From Candidatus Omnitrophota bacterium (GTDB lineage Bacteria > Omnitrophota > Gorgyraeia > Zapsychrales > Fredricksoniimonadaceae), in assembly GCA_903860135.1 (NCBI GenBank), contig CAIOPG010000006.1:100275-164274 (forward strand): 64,000 bases of DNA, in the 5' to 3' direction. The notes beneath the pieces are model-generated. The model was not told the origin of the DNA and searched no databases. It was given only the letters and a program-made list of their open reading frames with translations. Both the position numbers and the translations under genes were made by a program. Shown here piece after piece: positions 3,407 to 41,583 of this stretch. Position 1 is the stretch's first letter. Each line of letters opens with the position of its first letter.

Positions 3407-4675
3407 ATGAAAGATGAACAGAAAGAGCGACGCAGGGTCGTTGTTACGGGTATTGGTGCAGTGAGCCCCAATGGAATTGGCTGGGATTGTTTTGTGTCTG
3501 CATTGAAGGCAGGGAAAAAAGCGATCCGTCCCATATCTCTTTTTTCTCCTGAAGGTTTGCCGTCGAGGATTGCTGGCGAGGTTGTTGATTTTGATCCTGT
3601 TGTATATATTCAGAAAAAAGATGTGATGAAAATGGGGCGGGGGGCTCAGCTGGGGATCGCGGCGGCCATGCTGGCTCTTGAGCATCGTGGTGTTCCCTTT
3701 GACGAAGAGGAAAAGGCATCTTGCCCCGTTATTATAGGAACCTCTGTCGGGGGGCTTGACTTTGCCGAAAAAGAGTTCCGGCATTTTTTTGATCATGGGG
3801 TGTCCAAAGTAAGCCCCTATTCGGGCATCGCGGTTTTTTGTGGTTTAGTTTCCGGTGAGATCTCACGCAGGTTGGGGCTACACGGACGAAGCGTTTCCAT
3901 TTCCAATGGATGTACCAGTTCGACAGATGCCTTGGAACAGGCCTACGCGAGTATCTTATCCGGAGATTCCGATATCGCGATCAGCGGAGGGGCGGATTGT
4001 TGCGTTTCTCCCGGGATTATTGCGGCTTTCTCGAGGATGGGGGTCATATCCACGGGTTATAATGATCGTCCTTCTGAAGGAAGCCGTCCTTTTGACAGGG
4101 ATCGGGATGGTTTTGTGATCGCTGAGGGGTCATGGGTATTTGTTTTGGAAGAGTATGCGAAGGCTAAGGCCCGGAATGCGGAGATTTATGCCGAGTTGAA
4201 AGGGTTCGGTGTCACCTGCGATGCGTATCATCCCACAACGCCGGATCCTGCGGGGACGTACATATGCTTGTCTTTACAGAAGGCGATTAAAGCGGCAGGG
4301 CTTTTGCCCGACGACATCGACTACTTTGCCGCTTATGGCAACGGGACAAGGATCAATGATGTTTATGAAACAAAAGTGATCAAGGAAGTTTTTGGTCGAC
4401 ATGCGTATAGCCTTCCTGTTTCTTCAATCAAATCCATGATCGGGCACTCGATCGGCTCTTCCGGTGCGGCTCAGGTTGCCACGGCCATTGCGGCCATCAC
4501 GCATGGGTTTCTTCCGCCGACCGTAGGCCTTGAGAATCCAGATGATGCTTGTGATCTTGACTATGTGCCACACAAGAGTCGTCCGGCCATATTACGGCAT
4601 GCCCTGTGCAATACCCTTTCTTTTGGCGGGAAGAATGCCGCTGTTGTTATTTCAAAGTTGCAGGATGATGATTGA
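3407..4675 (+). CDS. beta-ketoacyl-ACP synthase I/II family (KAS)
   Basis: VVVTGIGAVSPNGIG at the N-terminus; active-site Cys context SISNGCTSS...ISGG; the catalytic His motifs AYHPTTPDPAG and IGHSIGSSGA. The start was chosen at M27 of the listed ORF (MKDEQKERRRVVVTG). Confidence 0.8.
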   Translation: MKDEQKERRRVVVTGIGAVSPNGIGWDCFVSALKAGKKAIRPISLFSPEGLPSRIAGEVVDFDPVVYIQKKDVMKMGRGAQLGIAAAMLALEHRGVPFDEEEKASCPVIIGTSVGGLDFAEKEFRHFFDHGVSKVSPYSGIAVFCGLVSGEISRRLGLHGRSVSISNGCTSSTDALEQAYASILSGDSDIAISGGADCCVSPGIIAAFSRMGVISTGYNDRPSEGSRPFDRDRDGFVIAEGSWVFVLEEYAKAKARNAEIYAELKGFGVTCDAYHPTTPDPAGTYICLSLQKAIKAAGLLPDDIDYFAAYGNGTRINDVYETKVIKEVFGRHAYSLPVSSIKSMIGHSIGSSGAAQVATAIAAITHGFLPPTVGLENPDDACDLDYVPHKSRPAILRHALCNTLSFGGKNAAVVISKLQDDD

Positions 4676-4719: not shown

Positions 4720-6903
4720 ATGGAGAACAAGCTTAGTTTTCTCGTCTATGGTGGTCTTCTTTCATGGGCTGTTAATCTTCTTATTGGATTCTTTGTCTTA
4801 GTCAAGAATCCTGACCGTAAAATAAACCGGTCTTTTTTTTGCCTCAATATTTGTATCGGCTCGTGGAGCCTTGGTTCTTTCCTTCTTAATTTCTATCCTC
4901 ATGAAAGTATTGGGTTATTGTTGCTGAAAATAAGCTATGTTTTTGCTTTTTTTCTTTTTTATTTCTTCCTGCGATTTACTCATGATGCTGTCGAACAAAA
5001 AATCCCTCCGCGGTGGCTGTGGTTTTCCATTGTGTCTGTAGCCGGGCTCCTCTTGTCATTGCCGGGCAATTCTTTTATTTCCGGGGTAAGGCAGTTGTCC
5101 GACGGGATGACCATAGAGCGTCCGGGGTTAGTCTATTATTTCTTTATTTCCGGTTTTGCTCTTATTGGTTTAAAAGGTTTGAAGCTTCTGCTTGTTCGGA
5201 AAGGGCAATTGCGGGGTACCGCCCTTTTTCAGATCAACTATATTTTCTTTGCGTACACCGTAGCCCTAGCTGCTGGCGTTGATTACTTCTTGTCGATACT
5301 GGGCATTGTAAAGACGTATCCGTATGATGATTATGTTCTTTTCTTTTCTTTTTCCATGTTGGCTTATGCGATCGTTAAATACCGCCTCATGGATATTCGG
5401 CTTGCTTTTACCCGTGCCGGGATATTTCTCACTGTTTATACGCTTGTCCTGGGAATACCCGTATGGGTCGGGTGGGGGATCATGGGGCAGGGGCTCTGGC
5501 TTTTTCCGGTTACGCTCATGGCTGTTCTTGCCACGGGTGGACCTTTCTTATATTTATGGATCCAGCGTCGCGCTGAAGCTTCTCTCCTTGCGGAACAACG
5601 TAAATATCAAACAACGTTGCGTCAGGCCTCGGCCGGCATGGGACGTATCCGCGACTTAAAGAAGTTGTTGAACCTTATTGTTTTTATCCTGACGCGCGTT
5701 GTGCGCATTGAACATGTCATGATCTATTTCATAGACCGTGATACCGGCGACTTTCATCTTGCGGCAGCGCGCAGGCACCGGACAGAAGAACCAGCCATTG
5801 CGCGCATAGAGTCCGGGTATCCACTTGTGAAATATTTATCAGCTATTTCATTACCGCTTGTCCGCGACGATGTTTCTTTAAGATCCCGTCAGGAAAAGGA
5901 CGCCGGTCTTGCTGCTATTGATCAGAATATGGGCGAACTCAGGGCAGAAATTGCTTTCCCGGTTTTTATACGGACGCACATGACGGCCATTGTCATCATG
6001 GGGAAAAAATCAAATGGACGTCATTATACCGAGGATGACCTTAATGTTTTCTCGATCCTTGCCAATCAGGCATCGCTGGCTGTTGAAAATGCTTTATCGT
6101 ATGAAGACATGAAAAAGACACAGGAACAACTTTTTAAAGCCGAAAAAATGGCGACCATTGGCACTATGGCTGACGGCCTTTCGCATCAGATCAATAATCG
6201 GTTGCATGCCATGGGTTTTGTCGCCAGCGACATGCTCGACACACTCAAGTTACGCAAGGCATTTTTTGCTACGGAAGAACTCAGACCTTTGGCCGAGGAG
6301 TTCGAGCATTCATTATCGCGTATCCAGGATAATGTGACGCGCGGCGGCGAGATCGTTCAGGGGCTCATGCGCTATACCCGTCAAGGGGAAGAAGGCTTTG
6401 CCGCTTACAGCATTGACGCGATTATCCGGAGTGCTTACGAAATGGCGCAGTTCAAGATCCGTTCTTTGGAATTCAGGTTGCTCAAGGCGTTTAATCCCGA
6501 GACTATCCCGCGTGTGCGCGGCAATTTCACTCAATTGCAGGAAGTGTTTTTTAATTTGATCGATAATGCCTACGATGCGACTGTCCAGCGCAAGGCCGAT
6601 TTGCGGGAAACAGATTATGCGGGTGCCTTGACTATCTCTGCCCATGAGGTCAATGGCCTTCTGGAGATCGTTTTCAGTGATAATGGCATCGGGGTCAAGT
6701 CTTCGGATAGGGATAAGCTTTTCACGCCGTTCTTTACGACCAAGGCGACGACCAAAAAAGGTACTGGACTTGGTTTGTATGTTATACGGAAGATCATTGA
6801 GGATAATCATGGTGGGAAGGTTGATATGCATTCAGTCTATGGCCAAGGGACCGAAATGACCATTTCTTTGGCGACAAGTAAGGATACACCGCCAGTTACC
6901 TGA
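4720..6903 (+). CDS. sensor histidine kinase with N-terminal 7TM-receptor-like membrane domain, GAF-like domain, HisKA and HATPase
   Basis: About 7 predicted TM helices in the first ~280 aa. An H-box region (ADGLSHQINNRLHAMGF) and ATPase G-boxes (SDNGIGV ... GTGLGLYVIRKII) are present. Confidence 0.8.
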   Translation: MENKLSFLVYGGLLSWAVNLLIGFFVLVKNPDRKINRSFFCLNICIGSWSLGSFLLNFYPHESIGLLLLKISYVFAFFLFYFFLRFTHDAVEQKIPPRWLWFSIVSVAGLLLSLPGNSFISGVRQLSDGMTIERPGLVYYFFISGFALIGLKGLKLLLVRKGQLRGTALFQINYIFFAYTVALAAGVDYFLSILGIVKTYPYDDYVLFFSFSMLAYAIVKYRLMDIRLAFTRAGIFLTVYTLVLGIPVWVGWGIMGQGLWLFPVTLMAVLATGGPFLYLWIQRRAEASLLAEQRKYQTTLRQASAGMGRIRDLKKLLNLIVFILTRVVRIEHVMIYFIDRDTGDFHLAAARRHRTEEPAIARIESGYPLVKYLSAISLPLVRDDVSLRSRQEKDAGLAAIDQNMGELRAEIAFPVFIRTHMTAIVIMGKKSNGRHYTEDDLNVFSILANQASLAVENALSYEDMKKTQEQLFKAEKMATIGTMADGLSHQINNRLHAMGFVASDMLDTLKLRKAFFATEELRPLAEEFEHSLSRIQDNVTRGGEIVQGLMRYTRQGEEGFAAYSIDAIIRSAYEMAQFKIRSLEFRLLKAFNPETIPRVRGNFTQLQEVFFNLIDNAYDATVQRKADLRETDYAGALTISAHEVNGLLEIVFSDNGIGVKSSDRDKLFTPFFTTKATTKKGTGLGLYVIRKIIEDNHGGKVDMHSVYGQGTEMTISLATSKDTPPVT

Positions 6904-32304: not shown

Positions 32305-34383
32305 GTGATGCGCGATCACTTCGGGGTTAAATTAGTCAGATTTATGTTGGCTGTGGTGATGTTGATGGCATGGAGTGTACCTTCTTTTGCCCAGGAAAGC
32401 GCGGTGGTTTTGACATTGAGGCCGGTTCAGACGGCTTTTGTTAAAGGGGACGTGTCAAAATTCAGGGCGATCAATTGGACCAAGGATGGCGCACAATCCG
32501 GGATCAAGGCGTTGCTCCTTGATGTCAAACCGACAAAAGATGTCACAGTGTCTTTTGAGGGCAGTGGCATGGTCGGTGATGCGGATTATACCGGCGGGAT
32601 GCTGGTTACCAAAGAGAACCTGGGGTATGTGAAGTTCAATTATGATTCTTTCCGGAAGTATTATGATAATAAGGGTGGGTACTATCCTTTTCCTTCAGCG
32701 GGGATGGCGTTACAGACATTGACTCAAGATCTGAAGCTGGATGTGGGGCATTTTGCCGTTGAGATCGGCAAAGGCACTGCCAGTGACCCTGATTTCAGCG
32801 TTGGTTATGAACGCGCCACCAAGAATGGTATCAAAGACAGTACGACCTGGGGGTATGTCAAAGATTATGCGTATAATGCCAATGCGACGGTTAATCGCAA
32901 AAAGATTGCACCGATCTTTATTACCAAAGATGAAATCACGGACACGTTGACTGTTAAAGGCAAGGTGGATGTGGCAGGATTTAAGGTCAAGGGTGAACAG
33001 AAGTATGTTTTCTTCAAGGGTAATAATTTACGTGAAGAGCGTGTTTACGGCAGCGCAGGGGCAACCACGGCTGAGAATAAGATCACGCGTCAGACGGAAA
33101 CACCGCAGACCAAGGAATTGTCATCGGTGATCCGCGCCGAGCGCTGGTCATTGAATGATAAGACGTATGTGGCCATGGGGTATCGTTTTGGCCATGTGCG
33201 TAATTCCATGCTTTATGTGTCCAGGGATTATAATTCAGCGACAGGGCTCTTGTTGTGGTCAGCCGGAAATTTCAAGGATGGATATGCCCAGAATATTCAG
33301 GATACGCATACGGTGACGGGCATGATGTCATCGAACCTGACCGATCAGTTGACGCTGATCTCCAGGGTTAAGGGAGAATTAAAAAGTAGTTATGGCACCA
33401 GCCATCAGTATTTCTTGAATAGCGCTGAAGTAGGGACGACGGATCTTTATCAGGTGAATGAAGACAAAGTGACCAACAGTGCTGAAAGTTTCTCGCTGAG
33501 GTATGCCGGGATTGCACGGACAAGCCTTTATGCGGACCTTGAGTTGAGCCAGGAACGGAACTGGAAGGCGTTAAATTATCCAACATCATGGTCGACGTCG
33601 GCACCGAATCCGGCACTGTTGCTTTCGGAAACGATCAACCATGTGCCTGAAACAGTGGGGACGCTGGGAATGCGCGTAACCCCGGTTGACAAGGTGAGCC
33701 TGACGACCGAACTTAAGTATAAAGAAAAGATAGATAAGCTGGATAAGGTCACGGGCTCTGCGGCGACGTATATCAATAAGCTCAATACCGTTTCTGAGGA
33801 GGTATCAACGCGCCTGGCCTGGAAGCCGTTTAAATGGCTGGAGAATTCTTTTAAGGTCAAGGCGGTGGATAACCTTTACCGTATCCAGGCCATGAACTTT
33901 AACAAGGTCAAGATGCCGGGCACCGAGCGTGATTTTATCTATGGCATTAATCTTATGCCGACGGATCAGGTGATGGTTAACCTGTCGTATGCACTGCAAT
34001 TATCCAAGACAGGCGGGATCGGGGATCAAAGTGTTTACGCCCCGCCGCCGTATACCGCCAATGTGTATACCTGGGCGTTGAGCAGCAGTTATGCGCCGAC
34101 GGAGAAATTTATTTTCTTCGATTCCCTGGAGTACTCAAGGGCCAAGAACCAGACGAATGTTGACGGGAAAAGCATTACGACAACGCTGGCGTCGATGGGA
34201 CCCATGCTCATGGGGCTCGACCAGGAATGGTACAGCATTGACAATGGGGTTAAATGGCTGCCGACCAAGAGCCTGACCATTGAACCGCATTATGCGTATT
34301 ATGCTTTCCGTAATTTTGAAGGCGTATCTACCGGCAATTACAGCGCGCATGTTATCTGGCTGGATGTGAATGTGACGTGGTGA
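32305..34383 (+). CDS. large outer-membrane beta-barrel protein (candidate porin partner of the adjacent cytochromes)
   Basis: Signal peptide ending AQE, 692 aa, a pattern of alternating hydrophobic residues and a C-terminal aromatic (..VNVTW). Confidence 0.5.
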   Translation: MMRDHFGVKLVRFMLAVVMLMAWSVPSFAQESAVVLTLRPVQTAFVKGDVSKFRAINWTKDGAQSGIKALLLDVKPTKDVTVSFEGSGMVGDADYTGGMLVTKENLGYVKFNYDSFRKYYDNKGGYYPFPSAGMALQTLTQDLKLDVGHFAVEIGKGTASDPDFSVGYERATKNGIKDSTTWGYVKDYAYNANATVNRKKIAPIFITKDEITDTLTVKGKVDVAGFKVKGEQKYVFFKGNNLREERVYGSAGATTAENKITRQTETPQTKELSSVIRAERWSLNDKTYVAMGYRFGHVRNSMLYVSRDYNSATGLLLWSAGNFKDGYAQNIQDTHTVTGMMSSNLTDQLTLISRVKGELKSSYGTSHQYFLNSAEVGTTDLYQVNEDKVTNSAESFSLRYAGIARTSLYADLELSQERNWKALNYPTSWSTSAPNPALLLSETINHVPETVGTLGMRVTPVDKVSLTTELKYKEKIDKLDKVTGSAATYINKLNTVSEEVSTRLAWKPFKWLENSFKVKAVDNLYRIQAMNFNKVKMPGTERDFIYGINLMPTDQVMVNLSYALQLSKTGGIGDQSVYAPPPYTANVYTWALSSSYAPTEKFIFFDSLEYSRAKNQTNVDGKSITTTLASMGPMLMGLDQEWYSIDNGVKWLPTKSLTIEPHYAYYAFRNFEGVSTGNYSAHVIWLDVNVTW

Positions 34384-34478: not shown

Positions 34479-35123
34479 ATGGGGTATAAGGTATATTATC
34501 CGGTTAATCTGGATTTAAACGGCAAACGATGCCTGGTGGTCGGCGGCGGGGCAGTGGCGGCCCGCAAGGCGCTCACGCTTATGGCCTTTGGCGGGGTCGT
34601 CACGGTGATCAGCCCGACGCTGGACCCGTTATTGCGGTGCCAGGTTAAATCAGGCAAGATCAGCTATATAGCCGGGAAATATCATCAGAAATTCATGGCA
34701 GGGGCAGCGGTTGTCATTGCGGCCACCGATGATCCGGCGGTGAATCAAATGGTATTCACGCATGCGGTGCGACGCAATATCCTGGTCAATGTGGTGGATG
34801 TACCGGAGTTGTGCACGTTCATTGTGCCGGCGATCGTCAGGCGAGGGCCTTTGGTACTGGGGATATCGACCAGCGGTCAAAGCCCGATGTTCGCGCAGCA
34901 ACAAAAGAAAATGTGTGAAGCCTGCCGAACGCCGCGGCACGGGGATTTTGTCCGCATGATGGGATCGGTGCGTGCCAGGATCAAGCGGCAGTACGCCACG
35001 ATTCCGGAGCGTAAGGCGGTGCATGCGAAGCTCATGGATTCGAACATCCTTGATCTTGTGCTTGCTGGTAAGGCTGTTGCGGCGCGGAAGGTCTTGCTGT
35101 CTATTCTCAAAGGGCGGGTATGA
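34479..35123 (+). CDS. precorrin-2 dehydrogenase / sirohydrochlorin ferrochelatase (siroheme synthase N-terminal domain)
   Basis: Rossmann motif LVVGGGAVAARK with CysG-N/SirC-like length and context. Confidence 0.8.
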   Translation: MGYKVYYPVNLDLNGKRCLVVGGGAVAARKALTLMAFGGVVTVISPTLDPLLRCQVKSGKISYIAGKYHQKFMAGAAVVIAATDDPAVNQMVFTHAVRRNILVNVVDVPELCTFIVPAIVRRGPLVLGISTSGQSPMFAQQQKKMCEACRTPRHGDFVRMMGSVRARIKRQYATIPERKAVHAKLMDSNILDLVLAGKAVAARKVLLSILKGRV

Positions 35124-36058
35124 TCGACAAGAAAATCATTGTCGGGGCTAGGAAAAGTCAGTTATCATTGACGCAGACCAATGGCGTTATAACTGTTTTA
35201 AAAGGGTTTTTCCCGGATTATGACTTTGAATTAAAGACGATTACGACGGCAGGCGACCGGAGCATGGAACCTGCGGCACTCTTTAATCATCAGGGAATTT
35301 TTGTCAAGGAGATCGAGGAAGCGCTGTTGCGCGGCGCAATCGACCTTGGGGTCCACAGTTTGAAGGATATGCCGTGTGCTATCCGTGATGGTTTGGCCCT
35401 GGGGGCTGTCGGTGAGCGTGAAGATCCGCGCGATGCGTTTTTGTCGCGCGACGGGTCAGCATTATGTGATCTGAAGCCAGGCGCTTTGATCGGAACGAGC
35501 AGTGTGCGCCGTCGGGCACAGCTTCTCCTCGCGCGCCCCGACCTTAAGGTGGTTGAGATGCGCGGGAATGTGGATACGCGGCTAAGGAAACTACAGGCGG
35601 GCGAGGTGGATGCCCTGGTTATTGCCTGTGCCGGTTTGGTGCGCCTGGGGCAGGAGCCGTGCATTACAGAACGTTTGTCGCTGGATATGATGCTGTCGGC
35701 GCCTTGCCAGGGGGCGTTGGGCCTTGAGATCCGGCACGATGATGCACGACTCAGGGCGGTTGCCGCGCGGTTTGACCATGCGTTGACGCGGGCGTGTGTG
35801 ACGGCAGAAAGAGCCTTCCTGCAAACATTAGGCGGCGGCTGCAGTTTGCCGGTGGGCGCGTTGGCACGACTGGAAGCTGGTGTGTTCACCCTGACGGGGC
35901 AGGTGGTTGATCCTGACGGGAAGAAAGCGATCCGGCGGAGTGTGTCAGGTCCTATGGCTGCGCCGCAAGCGCTCGGCGAAACGTTGGCCAGGGAATTATG
36001 GGATGCTGACGGGGCGTGGATAAAGCTAGCGTTACAAAGTCCATATTCTAAGAAATAA
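35120..36058 (+). CDS. hemC: porphobilinogen deaminase (hydroxymethylbilane synthase)
   Basis: ...IVGARKSQLSLTQT... and ...GGCSLPVGA... Confidence 0.9.
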   Translation: MIDKKIIVGARKSQLSLTQTNGVITVLKGFFPDYDFELKTITTAGDRSMEPAALFNHQGIFVKEIEEALLRGAIDLGVHSLKDMPCAIRDGLALGAVGEREDPRDAFLSRDGSALCDLKPGALIGTSSVRRRAQLLLARPDLKVVEMRGNVDTRLRKLQAGEVDALVIACAGLVRLGQEPCITERLSLDMMLSAPCQGALGLEIRHDDARLRAVAARFDHALTRACVTAERAFLQTLGGGCSLPVGALARLEAGVFTLTGQVVDPDGKKAIRRSVSGPMAAPQALGETLARELWDADGAWIKLALQSPYSKK

Positions 36059-36069
36059 CAACTTAGAAT

Positions 36070-36216
36070 GTGATCTTTTACGGGTTCTTAAAGCTTGCAG
36101 TAGCCCTTGCTGCTCAGACAGCAGAAACAGCTTTTTCTTGAAATATTTTTATGGAAAGCCTGGTTTCTGAACTCGCGACGGCGGGATACTTCCAGCTTTA
36201 AACCAGTAAAAGCTAG
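36070..36216 (+). repeat. copy 1 of a ~146-nt structured intergenic element (nested inverted repeats), upstream of cobA–hemD
   Basis: About 90% identical to 40967–41111. An outer stem cttttacgggttcttaaagcttg / cagctttaaaccagtaaaag encloses an inner hairpin ctgct-cagac-agcag. Confidence 0.8.
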
Positions 36217-36254
36217 GCGTAATTTAATATATGAAAAGATCGGGACATTAGGTT

Positions 36255-37799
36255 ATGAGATCAGGTAAAGTTTATCTTGTCGGTGCCGGGCCTGGGGATA
36301 TCGGGCTGGTCACACTCAAAGCGGTTGATCTTCTGAAGGCCGCGGATGTGGTGGTGTACGATCAGCTTGTTAATCCTGAAATCCTGGCTTTTGCCCGGCA
36401 AGGCGCGGAGCTTGTGTTTGCAGGAAAATATGCGGGCGATCATGTGTTGGGCCAGGCGGAGATCAATCAGGTCCTCATCGACAGGGCGCATCAGGGAAAA
36501 GCGGTGGTCCGTTTAAAGGGCGGGGATCCGCTGCTTTTTGGCCGCGGTGCCGAGGAAGCCTTGGAGCTGGCCGAAGCCGGGGTGCTTTTTGAGATCGTTC
36601 CGGGTGTGAGTTCTGCCTATGCGGTTCCGGCTTATGCGGGGATCCCGGTCACGTACCGCAATATTTCTTCGCGGCTTAATATTGTCACTGGCCATGAAAC
36701 GCCCGATAAAGGCAAGGCCGTGATCCCGTGGAAGAAGCTTCTCGATAAAAATGGCACGCTTGTTATTCTGATGGGGTTTGGCAATCTGGAGACTATTGTC
36801 CGGCAGATCGTAACGACACCCGAAGCGTTGAAGACGCCGGTGGCCTTGATCAGCAGGGGCACACGCCCCGAACAGCTGGTGGTGACAGGGGTCCTTTCCA
36901 ATATTGTGAAGAAAGTTAAAGCGTCAGGCATGAAGGCCCCGGCGATCATTGTGATCGGGGCGGTGGTGAATTTGCGCAAGAAACTCGACTGGTTCAAGCC
37001 GGAACTTCCGTTGAAAGGCAAGCGGATCCTTGTGACGCGGCCCGTGCATCAGGCCAGTGTGCTGGCTGATCTTTTAAAACGTCAGGGGGCCAGTGTAACC
37101 GCCATACCGCTCATCACCGTCGTTGCATCGAGGGATGTGGCAGGTATCAGGTCGACACTGCATGATCTGGACCAGTATGACTGGATCGTTTTAACCAGTG
37201 TCAACGGAGCGGTTTTTTTTCTGAAGGCACTGGGGCGTCACAAGATCAGCCTTGATCGCTTGAAGGGCAAGAAATTCGCGGCCATTGGTAAAAAGACGGC
37301 CGAGCACCTGGAAGCCGCCGGGATCAAGGTGGACCTGACGCCGCGGGAGTTTGTTCAGGAAGGGCTGGCCGATGCCATGATCCAGGCCATTGCCACAGGG
37401 TCAAGGCGTGTCCTTTTGCCGCATGCCGCCGGAAGCCGGACGGTCCTTGAACAGCGTCTGCGCGCCGCCGGGCTTAAAGTGGATACACTCGATCTGTACA
37501 GCACCAGGCCGGTCACGGAAAATCATCGGCGTGTGAAGAAGCTGTTTGAGGATCGCAAAGTTGATGCGGTCATGCTCACCAGTTCATCGTGTGCGGAAAG
37601 TTTTATCGATGTGTTTGACCGTTCACGCCTGAAGCAAGCGGTGGGGGATGTTGTTATGGCGTCGATCGGTCCGATCACGTCGGCAACCATCCGCAAGGCC
37701 GGCTTGGCCGTGGCGGTGGAAAGTCAGGAGTCGACGATCGAAGGTGTTACCCATGCGCTTGTGGGCTATTACCGTCAATCAAAGAAAGACGCCACATGA
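36255..37799 (+). CDS. fused uroporphyrinogen-III C-methyltransferase / uroporphyrinogen-III synthase
   Basis: N-terminal CobA/SUMT (VYLVGAGPGDIGLVTLKA...VVYD); the C-terminal ~250 aa are HemD-like. Confidence 0.85.
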   Translation: MRSGKVYLVGAGPGDIGLVTLKAVDLLKAADVVVYDQLVNPEILAFARQGAELVFAGKYAGDHVLGQAEINQVLIDRAHQGKAVVRLKGGDPLLFGRGAEEALELAEAGVLFEIVPGVSSAYAVPAYAGIPVTYRNISSRLNIVTGHETPDKGKAVIPWKKLLDKNGTLVILMGFGNLETIVRQIVTTPEALKTPVALISRGTRPEQLVVTGVLSNIVKKVKASGMKAPAIIVIGAVVNLRKKLDWFKPELPLKGKRILVTRPVHQASVLADLLKRQGASVTAIPLITVVASRDVAGIRSTLHDLDQYDWIVLTSVNGAVFFLKALGRHKISLDRLKGKKFAAIGKKTAEHLEAAGIKVDLTPREFVQEGLADAMIQAIATGSRRVLLPHAAGSRTVLEQRLRAAGLKVDTLDLYSTRPVTENHRRVKKLFEDRKVDAVMLTSSSCAESFIDVFDRSRLKQAVGDVVMASIGPITSATIRKAGLAVAVESQESTIEGVTHALVGYYRQSKKDAT

Positions 37800-38983
37800 T
37801 CAGTTTTACCGGATTATTGAATGACATCACCTCGTATGGGGACAACCTGCGTTATCGCCGTCACGCGGATCCGTCGCGCCGCCGCCCCATCGCGGTCTGG
37901 AATTGTTCCCGGCGCTGTAACCTGAGTTGTGTGCATTGTTACGCGGATTCGCGCGATACCGCCTATGCCGGAGAATTGACGACCGATGAAGCCAAGGCCA
38001 TGATCCGTGACCTTAAGGATTTTAACGTGCCGGTCCTTTTGTTTTCAGGCGGCGAGCCGTTGATGCGCCCTGATTTGTTTGAATTGAACGTTTATGCCCG
38101 GGAACTTGGCCTGCGCACGGTGATCTCGACCAACGGCACATTGATCACGCCAGAAGTCGCGCGCAAGATCAAAGCTACAGGGTTTGAATATATCGGTGTC
38201 AGCCTCGACGGGATCGGCAAGAACAATGATCGGTTCCGCGGCAAGATCGGGGCTTTTGAGGATGCCTTAAATGGCATCAGGAATCTGGTCGATGTCGGGC
38301 AGAAAGTCGGCCTGCGTTTTACGATCACGGGGCACAATTACCGCGACATGCCGCTGCTTTTTGATCTCGTCGAGAAAGAAGCGGTGAACCGTATTTGTTT
38401 TTATCACCTGGCGTATTCAGGGCGCGGCACAGATCTTAAAGAGAATGACCTGGGTTTGGAGGAAACGCGGCAGGCCATTGATCAGATCTATGAATGGGTC
38501 CTTTCTTTAAAACGGCGGGCGCTCGCCAAAGAGGTGTTGACCGTCGATAACCATGCTGACGGCGCGTATCTTTATTTGAAAGTCAAACGCGCGGATCCGG
38601 TGATGGCCGAGGCCATTTATCATTTGTTGAGGGCCAATGGCGGCAATGCGTCGGGGGTGGGTATTTCCAATATTGATAATGTCGGGAATGTGCATGGTGA
38701 TCAATTCTGGCAGAAGGTGTCTTTCGGTAATGTCAGGGAACGCAAGTTCGGTGATATCTGGATGGACACATCGCATGCGCTCATGGGCAAGCTCAAGGAC
38801 CGTCAGCCGCATTTGAAGGGAAGATGCCCCACGTGCAAGTTCCTGGATATTTGCAATGGCAATCTGCGGGTCCGTGCCTGGGCGGCGACAGGCGATGTCT
38901 GGGCCGATGACCCGGCGTGTTATTTGACAGACAAGGAAGTCTTTGAAACGGAAACGCCAGCTGTAAAGGTTCCGGGACAATGA
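37796..38983 (+). CDS. radical-SAM/SPASM enzyme of the alternative haem pathway (AhbC/AhbD type)
   Basis: CSRRCNLSCVHCY CxxxCxxC motif and a Cys-rich C-terminal SPASM-like region, embedded among hem/ahb genes. Confidence 0.65.
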   Translation: MISFTGLLNDITSYGDNLRYRRHADPSRRRPIAVWNCSRRCNLSCVHCYADSRDTAYAGELTTDEAKAMIRDLKDFNVPVLLFSGGEPLMRPDLFELNVYARELGLRTVISTNGTLITPEVARKIKATGFEYIGVSLDGIGKNNDRFRGKIGAFEDALNGIRNLVDVGQKVGLRFTITGHNYRDMPLLFDLVEKEAVNRICFYHLAYSGRGTDLKENDLGLEETRQAIDQIYEWVLSLKRRALAKEVLTVDNHADGAYLYLKVKRADPVMAEAIYHLLRANGGNASGVGISNIDNVGNVHGDQFWQKVSFGNVRERKFGDIWMDTSHALMGKLKDRQPHLKGRCPTCKFLDICNGNLRVRAWAATGDVWADDPACYLTDKEVFETETPAVKVPGQ

Positions 38984-39972
38984 CGCATCCTGCCAGAAAA
39001 GCTATTATTAAAAAACTGGCACCGGCGGCCTGTGGTTTTTCCCTGATCATGCCGTATTTTGTTATTGAAGGCAAAGGCATCAGGAATCCGGTTGTATCCA
39101 TGCCGGGGGTTGCCCAGCTGTCGATCGACAACCTGATCAAAGAGGTGGCGCTCGCCCGGAAGCTGGGGATTCCCGCTGTACTTATCTTCGGGATACCAGC
39201 GCATAAAGATCTGCGGGCAACCCAGGCGTATGCCCCTGACGGGATCGTGCAACAGGCCGTGCATGCCCTGAAGAAGGCCGTGCCGGAGATGATGGTCATC
39301 ACCGATGTTTGCCTGTGCGAGTACATGACCCATGGCCATTGCGGTGTGCTGAAGGACATGACGGGGCGACGCGCCATGCCGGCACGCCTCGCTGATTTCA
39401 TTGATCTCAAGCAAACACGAAAACTATTGGCAGTCACAGCCCTGACACAGGCGCGTGCGGGAGCGGATATGGTGGCGCCGTCGGCCATGATGCCCGGACA
39501 GGTGGGCGCCATCCGCGCGGTGCTTGATGAGAACGGGTTTAAACATATCCCGATCATGGGGTACAGCGCAAAATACGCCTCGGCGTTCTACGGGCCTTTC
39601 CGTGATGCCGCGCAGTCAGCGCCGAAGTTCGGCGACCGTTCCTTGTATCAACTGGATCCGGCCGATGCCCTGATCGCGCTCAAGGAAGTGGCGGCAGATA
39701 TTGATGAACAGGCGGACATTGTCATGGTTAAACCGGCGTTGCCGTACCTTGATGTGATCGCGCGGGTTCGAAGAAAGTTTAAGGCCCCTTTGGCCGCGTA
39801 CAATGTCAGCGGGGAATATGCCATGGTCAAGGCGGCCGCGGCCAACGGCTGGCTCGACGAGAAGAAAACAGTCCTTGAAATATTGACGGCGATCCATCGT
39901 GCCGGCGCGGGCATCATCATCAGTTACCATGCCTGTGACGCGGCGGTGTGGCTTAAGGAGACAAAGAAATGA
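38980..39972 (+). CDS. hemB: porphobilinogen synthase (ALA dehydratase)
   Basis: ...VMVKPALPYLD... active-site Lys context and ...GYSAKYASAFYGPFRDA... Confidence 0.9.
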   Translation: MTHPARKAIIKKLAPAACGFSLIMPYFVIEGKGIRNPVVSMPGVAQLSIDNLIKEVALARKLGIPAVLIFGIPAHKDLRATQAYAPDGIVQQAVHALKKAVPEMMVITDVCLCEYMTHGHCGVLKDMTGRRAMPARLADFIDLKQTRKLLAVTALTQARAGADMVAPSAMMPGQVGAIRAVLDENGFKHIPIMGYSAKYASAFYGPFRDAAQSAPKFGDRSLYQLDPADALIALKEVAADIDEQADIVMVKPALPYLDVIARVRRKFKAPLAAYNVSGEYAMVKAAAANGWLDEKKTVLEILTAIHRAGAGIIISYHACDAAVWLKETKK

Positions 39973-40940
39973 TCATTTCATGGAATATCACCAAGGCCTG
40001 CCAGTTGAAATGCCTGCATTGTTACCGGGATGCCGGCACGAAAGAAGCCGATGAATTGACTCCGGCGGAGGGTAAGGAGTTGATCGACGAGATCGCTCTC
40101 GCCGGGTTCAAGATCCTCATTATCAGCGGCGGAGAGCCGTTGATGCGCCCGGATGTGTATGACCTGATCGCGCATGCCAGGTCTAAAGGGTTGCGTCCGG
40201 TATTAGGGACCAACGGGTGCATGATCGACCGCACGGTGGCACGGAAGCTCAAGGAAGCCGGGCTCACGCGGGCCGGGATCAGCCTCGACAGCACCGATGC
40301 GGCGGTGCATGACAACTTCCGCCAGTATCCGGGCGCCTGGCAAGAAAGCCTGGCTGGGATGAAAGCGTGCCTCGATGAAGGCCTGGATTTTCAGATCCAC
40401 ACCACGGTGACAACGTATAATTATCAGAATGTCGAGAAGATCACGGACCTGGCGGTTACCCTTGGCGCCAAGGCGCATCATATCTTTTTTCTTGTCCCGA
40501 CGGGCAGAGGCAAAGACCTTGAAGCCCTGATCCCCTCGCATGCATATCAGGCGCTCTTGAAAAAGATCATGCACAAACAGCGTGCGGTCTCCATCGAATT
40601 AAAACCGGTGTGCGCGCCGCAATTTGTACCCTTGGCACAGGACATGCATCAGCCGACACGGTTTCAGCGCGGCTGTCTGGCGGGGGTCAGCTATTGCTGT
40701 ATCCTGCCCAATGGGGATGTGCATCCATGTCCCTATTTCCCGATCAAGGTTGGGAACACGCGCGCACAGAAATTCAGCGCGCTGTGGAAAAGCCATCCGC
40801 TGTTCAAGGAGTTGCGCGACGGGGAGTATAGCGGTAACTGCGGCGGCTGTCTGCATAAAACGACCTGCGGCGGGTGCCGTGCCCGGGCCTATGCCGCGAC
40901 GGGCAATTACATGGATTTTGACCCGGAGTGCATTTATTAA
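39969..40940 (+). CDS. radical-SAM/SPASM enzyme of the alternative haem pathway (AhbC/AhbD type)
   Basis: ITKACQLKCLHCY motif and a C-terminal Cys cluster (CGGCLHKTTCGGCRARA). Confidence 0.65.
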   Translation: MIISWNITKACQLKCLHCYRDAGTKEADELTPAEGKELIDEIALAGFKILIISGGEPLMRPDVYDLIAHARSKGLRPVLGTNGCMIDRTVARKLKEAGLTRAGISLDSTDAAVHDNFRQYPGAWQESLAGMKACLDEGLDFQIHTTVTTYNYQNVEKITDLAVTLGAKAHHIFFLVPTGRGKDLEALIPSHAYQALLKKIMHKQRAVSIELKPVCAPQFVPLAQDMHQPTRFQRGCLAGVSYCCILPNGDVHPCPYFPIKVGNTRAQKFSALWKSHPLFKELRDGEYSGNCGGCLHKTTCGGCRARAYAATGNYMDFDPECIY

Positions 40941-40966
40941 TTGTGCGTGTTGCTTGAAAATATCAG

Positions 40967-41111
40967 TGTGATCTTTTACCGGTTCTTAAGGCTTGCGGAT
41001 GCCTTGCTGCTCAGACAGCAGAAACAGCTTTTTCTTGAAATACTTTAAGGAAAGCTTGGTTTCTGAACTCGCGACGGCGGCACTCTTCAGCCTTAAACCG
41101 GTAAAAGCTAG
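40967..41111 (+). repeat. copy 2 of the ~146-nt structured intergenic element, upstream of ahbA
   Basis: Same architecture as copy 1. Its outer stem is cttttaccggttcttaaggcttg / cagccttaaaccggtaaaag, with compensatory changes (aag→agg in the 5' arm paired with ctt→cct in the 3' arm) relative to copy 1. Confidence 0.8.
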
Positions 41112-41130
41112 TCGGAAATATGGTTATTAT

Positions 41131-41583
41131 ATGTTGACTATAAAAGATAAGAAATTTCTCAGGAAGCTTCAGACGGATTTCCCGTTGGTGTCCCGGCCTT
41201 TTGCTGTGTTGGCGGCAGAGCAGGGAGTTACCGAGGCGGAGCTGTTGGCTTATTTCAAGGATTTGCGTCAACAAGGTGTCCTGCGTTATATCGCGGTGAT
41301 GTTTGAATTGAAGGCGCTGGGTATTATTTCAAGTTTGATCGGTATGCGCGTCCCTGCGGACAAACTTGATGCGACGGTGGCTATCATCAATGCGTATCCG
41401 AATGTAAGCCATAATTATCTGCGCGAAGGTGAGTACAATGTCTGGTTCACTGTCAGTGCGGCGTCGGAACGCCGTCTTAAATCGATCCTGGCAGATATCC
41501 GCAAGAAGAGCGGTATTAAAGCTATGCTGGACCTAAGGACGCGGCGGGTTTTTAAGAATCAGGCTGTCTTTGAATTGAAATGA
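41131..41583 (+). CDS. siroheme decarboxylase subunit (AhbA/AhbB; NirD/NirL-like Lrp/AsnC fold)
   Basis: About 150 aa, similar to NirDLGH-type subunits. The start is placed after the repeat element; the listed ORF 40993.. reads through the repeat. Confidence 0.7.
   Translation: MLTIKDKKFLRKLQTDFPLVSRPFAVLAAEQGVTEAELLAYFKDLRQQGVLRYIAVMFELKALGIISSLIGMRVPADKLDATVAIINAYPNVSHNYLREGEYNVWFTVSAASERRLKSILADIRKKSGIKAMLDLRTRRVFKNQAVFELK

Follow-up and report, generated by a model that had tools for sequence, protein, structure and literature searches.

A structured intergenic repeat at two junctions of a haem-biosynthesis operon in Candidatus Omnitrophota

Introduction

A 64,000-nucleotide stretch of the genome of a Candidatus Omnitrophota bacterium (contig CAIOPG010000006.1 of assembly GCA_903860135.1; the whole stretch is called the window here) contains a cluster of haem-biosynthesis genes with a structured element in two of its spacers. 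The two copies, A and B, belong to a family of hairpin repeats which is named E in this analysis; the part common to the family is about 110 nt long and the subtype found in the window has 140–150 nt. The original prediction had been that the two copies are a cis-regulatory RNA or operator dedicated to haem genes. The results described below show instead that E is a dispersed structured repeat, which, on balance, would probably be co-transcribed in operon mRNA and act on that mRNA as a stable hairpin.

The haem operon and the two copies of E

Annotation with NCBIfam models gave the gene order sirC, hemC, copy A, cobA-hemD, ahbC, hemB, ahbD, copy B, ahbA, ahbB and hemL, in agreement with the gene context originally described. 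The cluster is an uninterrupted sirohaem-dependent haem pathway, in which ahbC is of the NirJ1 type and ahbD of the NirJ2 type by the same models. The gene 5′ of copy A is hemC (35120–36058, + strand; TIGR00212, E-value 4e-97) and the gene 3′ of it is a cobA-hemD fusion (36255–37799, +; NF004790 and HemD models). Copy B is preceded by ahbD, encoding a NirJ2-type radical SAM haem synthase (39969–40940, +; TIGR04055, E-value 3e-141), and followed by ahbA, encoding a protein of 150 aa (41131–41583, +; NF040708).

Copy A (36074–36217, +) was matched by covariance model R1 with 133.6 bits (E-value 1e-34) and occupies the 196-nt spacer from the hemC stop at 36058 to the cobA-hemD start at 36255. Copy B (40972–41112, +; 132.2 bits, E-value 2.5e-34) occupies the 190-nt spacer from the ahbD stop at 40940 to the ahbA start at 41131. 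These bounds are those of the model; as first located from the sequence the copies span 36070–36216 and 40967–41111, and both placements were confirmed. Both are of subtype i (see below) and, as had been noticed from the sequence, they are look-alikes in the same orientation, with 88% identity over 154 nt. No third copy was found in the window by low-stringency BLASTN (word 7), by a repeat finder or by the covariance model with its filters off.

Each copy folds as one long imperfect hairpin, of -50 kcal/mol for A (z-score -2.9) and -61 kcal/mol for B (z-score -4.6), and none of 200 dinucleotide shuffles folded as stably as either. The antisense strand of copy A gives a weaker fold (-43 kcal/mol). 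In the minimum free energy (MFE) fold of copy A the distal 5′ arm of the outer stem (ATCTTTTACGGGTTCTTAAAGC, 36073–36094, +) pairs with the distal 3′ arm (GCTTTAAACCAGTAAAAGCT, 36195–36214, +), the latter being assigned from the sequence and the MFE fold. This stem has one G/A mismatch; the same pair is C-G in copy B and U-A in a copy (locus L006) from the relative AM4_bin-704 (AM4). In copy B the corresponding arms are ATCTTTTACCGGTTCTTAAGGC (40971–40992, +) and, again from sequence and fold, GCCTTAAACCGGTAAAAGCT (41090–41109, +).

Between the arms lie two core blocks, recognised by their conservation in an alignment of 21 copies of the family. The invariant 5′ block of copy A, CTGCTCAGACAGCAGAAACAGCTTTTTC (36110–36137, +), corresponds to alignment columns 47–73 and is 98% conserved, and the 3′ block, GGAAAGCCTGGTTTCTGAACTCGC (36153–36176, +), corresponds to columns 91–115 and is 97% conserved. 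The two blocks pair as CAGAAAC/GUUUCUG and AGCUUUUU/GGAAAGCU. In copy B the invariant 5′ block is at 41007–41034 (+) and the conserved 3′ block, GGAAAGCTTGGTTTCTGAACTCGC, at 41049–41072 (+).

The compensated change in the outer stem on which the original prediction drew is real: TTAAAGC/GCTTTAA in copy A is TTAAGGC/GCCTTAA in copy B. It falls at alignment columns 28/135, where 12 members of the family have G-C and eight have A-U. Copies A and B also have CTCGCGACGGCGG in common, a variant found in place of the CTCGCA of the 19 other copies, so that within the window lineage one copy arose from the other or the two have exchanged sequence.

The copies had been thought to precede two separate haem transcription units. 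No sigma-70-like promoter and no intrinsic-terminator-like site was found on the coding strand of either window spacer, and thus nothing marks A and B as heading separate units.

An annotation problem is associated with copy B. The repeat provides an in-frame ATG at 40999 (in GGATGCC) from which a frame reads through the repeat into ahbA (40993–41583), and public gene calls give AhbA as a protein of 194 aa. Residues 6–147 of AhbA align with positions 1–142 of the 144 positions of the NF040708 model, and 150 aa is also the called length of the orthologue in AM4; both favour a 150-aa protein starting at 41131. The 194-aa call, with its 44-residue extension, is an annotation artefact of the repeat.

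Structure and conservation of the family

The anatomy of E was derived from the alignment and folds of the 21 distinct copies. Outermost is a closing helix of at least 15 pairs, the sequence of which differs between copies. Inward of this is an asymmetric conserved region consisting of a UGC/GCA helix, a 3-nt UCA bulge, a GA/UC helix and a CAG/AAC internal loop, then the 7-bp CAGAAAC/GUUUCUG helix with a UG bulge and, innermost, the 8-bp AGCUUUUU/GGAAAGCU helix with two G·U pairs, leading to a variable apical loop. The asymmetric core of about 50 nt is nearly invariant; conservation is 82% in the closing helix and 74% in the loop. Hairpin stability ranges from -50 to -77 kcal/mol across the copies, each of which contains at least 20 bp of near-perfect duplex.

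Outside the common 110 nt or so, three distal-arm subtypes can be distinguished. The two window copies and five of those in AM4 belong to subtype i, ATCTTTTACYGGTYYTTAAGGC...GCCTTAAACCRGTAAAAGC; subtype ii, GTACATGTAAG...GTGCGTACWTGT, is paired largely through G·U; and subtype iii ends at the closing helix. The ends of E are inverted repeats within each subtype, of three outer-arm types, and conservation is highest in the centre of the element.

The inner perfect hairpin CTGCT-CAGAC-AGCAG that was described originally is present as a stretch of sequence, but as a hairpin it is only an alternative local fold. The family consensus places these residues in the long hairpin, as the UGC/GCA and GA/UC pairs around the asymmetric internal loop. 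The stretch is invariant, so covariation favours neither fold.

Support for the consensus of 35 pairs came from the alignment, in which 96.6% of cells are standard pairs. Double-sided changes occur at 11 of the 15 pairs of the closing helix, and not one of 500 column shuffles reached the observed paired fraction, number of double changes or covariation score. When, as a control, the pairing partner was slid by 1–3 columns, pairing fell to 24–47%. The inner helices are invariant and hence outside the reach of covariation. A compensated pair (ACTGG/CCAGT versus ACCGG/CCGGT) is also seen between the copy in the AM4 haem operon (L006) and its paralogue in L021, which are 97–99% identical (99% in the common region). 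Per-pair substitution counts between orthologues were mixed, as the single-sequence MFE folds include flanks, and the family-level count was used instead. On this comparative evidence the structure of E is under selection, as had been argued from the one compensated change.

The degree of conservation was set against neutral divergence. Between the window species and AM4 the four-fold degenerate sites of ahbD, ahbA, ahbB and hemL are 43–50% identical, whereas the element before ahbA is 89% identical (124/140) and the remainder of the spacer cannot be aligned. For the one pair of orthologous copies in AM4 and a further relative, ELA167 (L013 and L023), the figures are 89% for the element and 37% for four-fold sites in the gene next to it. 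The copies have thus been kept far more similar than neutral divergence would leave them, which implies either selection on the resident copies or their steady replacement from a constrained source.

Distribution and turnover

A scan for an exact 20-nt word from the core was carried out on one genome per species (185,579 species, 596 billion bases). It matched 22 loci, and full elements were found only in two Omnitrophota metagenome-assembled genomes (MAGs), AM4_bin-704 and ELA167. The five further matches, in Merdimonas, a Burkholderiales MAG, Methyloceanibacter, Faecalicatena and Bosea, were of the bare 20-mer only, roughly as many as chance would produce in a search of that size. In AM4 at least 12 full copies and a truncated one are spread over 10 contigs and both strands, and ELA167 has at least eight copies on eight contigs together with a tandem partial copy (at least nine). 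Both nhmmer and the covariance model confirmed the copies. When metagenomes were scanned with an independent word, 20 nt of the 3′ half, the same populations were recovered together with one additional copy. The family has at least 21 distinct copies in three species-level lineages.

These copy numbers are lower bounds, as the MAGs are incomplete and the words exact, and more divergent members of the family would escape; all of the relatives are MAGs or metagenome contigs. As far as exact-pattern scans can see, E is confined to a narrow clade of freshwater Candidatus Omnitrophota. A gapped core pattern gave no hits in viral contigs, and BLASTN in distant mode gave no match to E in plasmid and phage records. 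All copies are intergenic, 110–150 nt long and devoid of a conserved open reading frame (ORF).

Several ELA167 copies lie at contig ends, and two short-read assemblies of the window population break inside the invariant core, one (L003, ending at 2924) in copy A and the other (L004, starting at 1) in copy B. E thus breaks MAG assemblies and the copy counts are underestimates.

Of about 20 copies in AM4 and ELA167, only a single locus in each genome is orthologous to one in the other. Truncated copies (L016, 5514–5570; L027, 2949–3011) and tandem partial copies are also present. Judged from this pattern, copies of E are gained, lost and copied. No target-site duplication was detected: the longest k-mer shared by the two flanks averaged 3.3 nt, against 3.0 nt in mismatched controls, and TA was found on both sides of one copy only (L021). 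The flanking loci (8–20 kb around the hits, about 450 kb in total) showed no transposase, RAYT gene or end of an insertion sequence (IS).

A second repeat, named I, was found in AM4. It is GC-rich and about 105 nt long, with GGGGC-GCAAG-CCCC as its inner hairpin and TTTTCGCC/GGCGAAAA closing it. Copies are at 4445–4552 in L006, 7146–7254 (-) in L021, and 3648–3750 and 5155–5255 (-) in L014. Repeat I adjoins E, within 20–100 nt, at four of about 11 AM4 sites, always on the same strand and in either order. It gave no Rfam hit and is absent from the window.

Genomic context

Most copies of E sit in short spacers between co-directional genes with unrelated functions, typically 13–46 nt from the upstream stop and 16–46 nt from the next start. 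In the orientation of the element, the genes 3′ of E encode an SDR fusion, a GAF-ANTAR regulator, PurH, a DUF134 protein, a response regulator, Hcp, a Cys/Met pyridoxal phosphate-dependent enzyme (CGS), aconitase, UvrC, HydF, CusA and BirA. Those on the 5′ side encode MazG, a peptidoglycan-binding protein, Acr3, ArsC, a ferredoxin, a sulfite reductase, MurJ, a lyase, CusB and a class II aminoacyl-tRNA synthetase. Metalloprotein and metal-handling genes are frequent in this list of neighbours.

The closest homologues of the window AhbD are in Candidatus Omnitrophota MAGs. AM4, the closest relative (AhbD 89% identical), has a 345-nt spacer between ahbD and ahbA which contains a copy of E and, ahead of it, another structured insert that is rich in GC. 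Between hemC and cobA, AM4 has no E but an unrelated pair of GGGGCGGGTCTAAGAYCCGCCC hairpins; this pair (L008, 6162–6291; also in L007) consists of two direct copies, 74 nt apart, of a REP-like 22-nt palindrome. The hemC-cobA junction is, from these sequences, filled by different structured inserts in sister lineages.

In the relatives with AhbD identities of 85%, 84% and 79%, hemC overlaps cobA and ahbD abuts ahbA; the relative with 86% identity has a gap of 40 nt between ahbD and ahbA. The covariance model found no E in the loci of these relatives (L009, L010, L011, L052 and L054). Among the loci compared, E precedes ahbA only in the window species and AM4. These tight, element-free junctions imply that the compact operon is ancestral and that the spacers and their inserts are recent in one sub-clade.

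Two loci with several copies were also observed. Three copies of E (two full, one truncated) lie within 2.3 kb (L016, 3920–6186) of an operon resembling those for arsenic resistance, with genes for a DUF134 protein, Acr3/SBF and an ArsC-type phosphatase, and they lie ahead of a response regulator gene. At L014 (3405–5355) a GAF-GAF-ANTAR gene is flanked by E and I upstream (sense) and by E and I downstream (antisense), and after the bracketed unit come a promoter of consensus form, TTGACA-17-TATAAT, and the gene for a type III glutamine synthetase. A composite transposon around the GAF-ANTAR gene was considered and rejected, as the two E and I pairs are not mirror images.

Two further features of the window were noted. 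An 89-nt direct repeat (71% identity) at 38048–38136 in ahbC and 40128–40216 in ahbD is no separate element but a consequence of the two radical SAM genes being paralogues. An ORF of 692 aa (32305–34383) directly 5′ of sirC has no NCBIfam match; the relatives have equivalents of 682–718 aa in the same position, after a multihaem cytochrome gene, with no Pfam hits.

Orientation and the active strand

Thirteen copies of E lie in spacers between tandem genes, most of them supported by Pfam, and 11 of these are in the sense orientation (one-sided binomial probability about 0.011). Folding of the sense strand gives 70 G·U pairs in the outer stems and folding of the antisense strand 28; in 17 of the 21 copies it is the sense strand that folds more stably. 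Together with the asymmetric core, this bias in orientation and in G·U pairs favours a function of the sense-strand RNA. The original prediction had left the choice between an RNA and a DNA cruciform; RNA is the likelier active form.

Comparison with known RNAs and repeats

Rfam 15 at the gathering threshold gave no hits in the whole window, consistent with the original remark that no known riboswitch could be recognised. When spacers of both kinds were searched at E-values up to 10 there was nothing meaningful, the best match being a chance one to a microRNA model with an E-value of 8.7. No report of an Omnitrophica repeat or non-coding RNA was found in the literature.

A number of other identities were considered and rejected. 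A riboswitch expression platform does not fit a single very stable hairpin with no terminator-like site. An intrinsic terminator does not fit either, as the 3′ arm is followed by GCTAGG or GCTAGT rather than a U tract, and no terminator-like site was found in the spacers. A small peptide could be read from the ATG in GGCATGCC (a 12-codon frame) or an antisense ATG in GCAT, but these are lost in several copies including A, there is no synonymous pattern and conservation is at the nucleotide level. The UCA bulge followed by GA is reminiscent of a kink-turn, but the UC of the opposite strand forms Watson-Crick pairs. The likeness of CAGAAACA to loop B of the hairpin ribozyme is not matched by the partner strand, which lacks GUAUAUUAC, and there is no Rfam hit. 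Integron attC sites show the opposite pattern to E, with conserved outer R/L boxes and a variable centre where E has an invariant centre and variable outer arms.

More informative was the comparison with small dispersed repeats. ERIC/IRU sequences are 127 bp long and are co-transcribed with flanking genes, with an orientation-dependent effect on mRNA stability (PMC2229807, PMC3184786). Like E, ERIC is a non-coding imperfect palindrome of about 130 nt, present in tens of copies per genome in intergenic positions inside transcription units, and gives a long stem-loop in RNA, as E would; the placement and sense bias are the same. There is no sequence relationship, and the phylum Omnitrophota is unrelated to the hosts of ERIC. 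ERIC also has TA termini and a target-site duplication (PMC2229807), neither of which is convincing in E, and it lacks the invariant asymmetric core, covarying closing helix and three outer-arm subtypes of E. Transcription and compensatory changes are also features of bcr1, a repeat of about 155 bp in the Bacillus cereus group (PMC2229807, PMC3184786). It is a dispersed repeat of similar size to E and known to be transcribed, whereas transcription of E is inferred; it is flanked by 5-bp direct repeats (PMC3184786), which E is not, and is unrelated in sequence and host.

Correia/NEMIS elements of Neisseria (107–155 bp) are also small palindromic intergenic repeats, and it has been proposed that the Correia hairpin, when transcribed, is a target of RNase III with an effect on the mRNAs next to it (PMC2229807). 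They have 24-bp terminal inverted repeats, duplicate TA, contain an IHF site and occur in hundreds of copies (PMC2229807); E has no consistent TA duplication, and its best-conserved part is the centre and not the ends. REPINs resemble E in forming a hairpin with compensatory changes in the stem, in clustering beside other repeats and in having no target duplication (PMC3116915). A REPIN is, however, symmetric, being built of two inverted REP copies of 20–25 nt, and occurs in hundreds of copies with a cognate RAYT gene (PMC3116915). E has an asymmetric core and about a dozen copies, and no RAYT was seen in the loci examined. Outside the P4/P5 helices its two core blocks are not reverse-complementary to each other, and in the internal loop 12 nt face 10 nt of unrelated sequence. 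As a classical MITE (miniature inverted-repeat transposable element) E would be small (under 200–300 bp), non-coding, multi-copy and intergenic, which it is, and would have a target-site duplication, which was not found.

In common with ERIC and bcr1, E is an imperfect palindrome of 100–170 nt between co-directional genes, with compensatory changes that preserve the hairpin. The best reading is thus that E would be a new ERIC/bcr1-like structured intergenic repeat. The peak of conservation in its asymmetric centre is unusual for such a repeat, as does the strong constraint in the face of saturated neutral divergence.

Interpretation

If E is indeed transcribed within operon mRNA in the sense orientation, the transcript would form a very stable hairpin with at least two turns of near-perfect duplex. 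This could be an entry site for a double-strand-specific ribonuclease of the RNase III type, a barrier to exonucleases on the mRNA, or both, and the hairpin probably affects mRNA processing or stability. The haem operon would be split into three segments, up to hemC, from cobA-hemD to ahbD and from ahbA to hemL, the stability or translation of which could differ. E would not be haem-sensing, and a haem-specific switch is not supported.

Several points weigh against a repeat acting on mRNA. Transcription, cleavage and an effect on neighbouring genes are all inferred. The invariant asymmetric core exceeds what an RNase III site needs, and a specific partner for it is missing from the model. Two full copies (L014b and L019), and perhaps that in L025, run antisense to the adjoining genes. 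A strand-specific process on single-stranded DNA coupled to replication, as with IS200/IS605 and RAYT, could also account for the excess of G·U pairs and the bias in orientation. Neither a target-site duplication nor a transposase was found, and it is from the distribution that mobility is read.

Some of these points lead to the possible, though rather unlikely, alternative that E is a purely selfish non-autonomous DNA transposon (a MITE, or of the REPIN/IS200-IS605 type), in which a transposase encoded in trans recognises the hairpin and core on single-stranded DNA and there is no role for RNA in the host. The multi-copy, patchy and mostly non-orthologous distribution fits this, as do the near-identical paralogues in one genome and the truncated and tandem partial copies. 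E lies within 20–100 nt of other repeat families, as REPINs do, and compensatory changes are common in REPIN hairpins too (PMC3116915). The lack of a target-site duplication fits HUH/Y1 transposition, and transposition through single-stranded DNA predicts strand asymmetry. The asymmetric core, however, means that E is not a doublet of inverted REPs; the copy number is low; the flanking loci yielded no transposase, RAYT or IS end and there was no similarity to plasmids or phages. The identity of L013 and L023, far above that of the four-fold sites, suggests constraint after insertion, and a sense bias of 11:2 is stronger than a by-product of replication normally gives.

It is improbable that E is a host-domesticated cis-acting RNA module, the site of one RNA-binding protein or ribonuclease, defining a post-transcriptional regulon possibly biased to Fe-S, haem or metal genes in the manner of an iron-responsive element. 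In favour of such a regulon are the core, which with its 3-nt bulge, 3 × 3 internal loop and UG bulge is invariant and asymmetric in 21 of 21 copies although neutral divergence is saturated, and the sense-oriented position near the next start codon. The apparent bias to metal-related neighbours (haem genes in two cases, and hcp, ferredoxin, sulfite reductase, aconitase, hydF, cusBA, ars and a sensor resembling Fe-hydrogenase) is also as it would predict, but the genomes of anaerobes are rich in Fe-S genes, and purH, uvrC, murJ, birA and an aminoacyl-tRNA synthetase gene are neighbours as well. Positions mostly unconserved between species are unusual for a regulon, and there is no candidate protein. 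A variant of this proposal, equally doubtful on the sequence evidence, is that E represents, in a clade of uncultivated Omnitrophota, an undescribed class of cis-acting structured RNA, the core of which would dock a dedicated RNA-binding protein or ribonuclease and mark a regulon while the element also spreads by copying.

The haem- or tetrapyrrole-responsive cis-regulatory RNA or operator for two haem sub-operons that was first proposed is now very improbable. Both window copies do lie directly upstream of haem-pathway genes in the sense orientation, a conserved structure with an invariant internal loop could in principle bind a ligand, and one AM4 copy follows a gene for a sirohaem-dependent sulfite reductase. 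About 17 of the 19 loci outside the window, however, have no haem gene adjoining E, the neighbours being unrelated; E is absent from the same junctions in relatives with 79–86% AhbD identity; the AM4 hemC-cobA junction holds a different repeat; and the hairpin is very stable (-50 to -77 kcal/mol), with no terminator or alternative expression platform present and no Rfam match. A dispersed multi-copy repeat, which is what E proved to be, was the outcome that the original prediction itself had named as contrary to it.

Scarcely tenable, finally, is a role at the DNA level, as a cruciform or as an operator bound by a protein, or the view that A and B are a chance or recent local duplication without selection on their structure: a long inverted repeat could extrude as a cruciform, and A and B lie within 5 kb with derived changes in common, but G·U pairs are far commoner on one strand, the conserved core is asymmetric, covariation over 21 copies excludes an unselected duplication, and the copies occur in three species.

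Conclusions

A tempting false lead has been removed, in that there is no evidence here for a haem riboswitch. In practical terms, the repeat breaks short-read assemblies inside the haem operon, and its in-frame ATG leads gene callers to lengthen AhbA. In place of the riboswitch there is a new, well-supported family of structured repeats in a phylum known almost only from metagenomes. The combination of a near-invariant core, a covarying stem and saturated neutral sites makes E a clean case of an element that may be selfish DNA, a host RNA module, or both.

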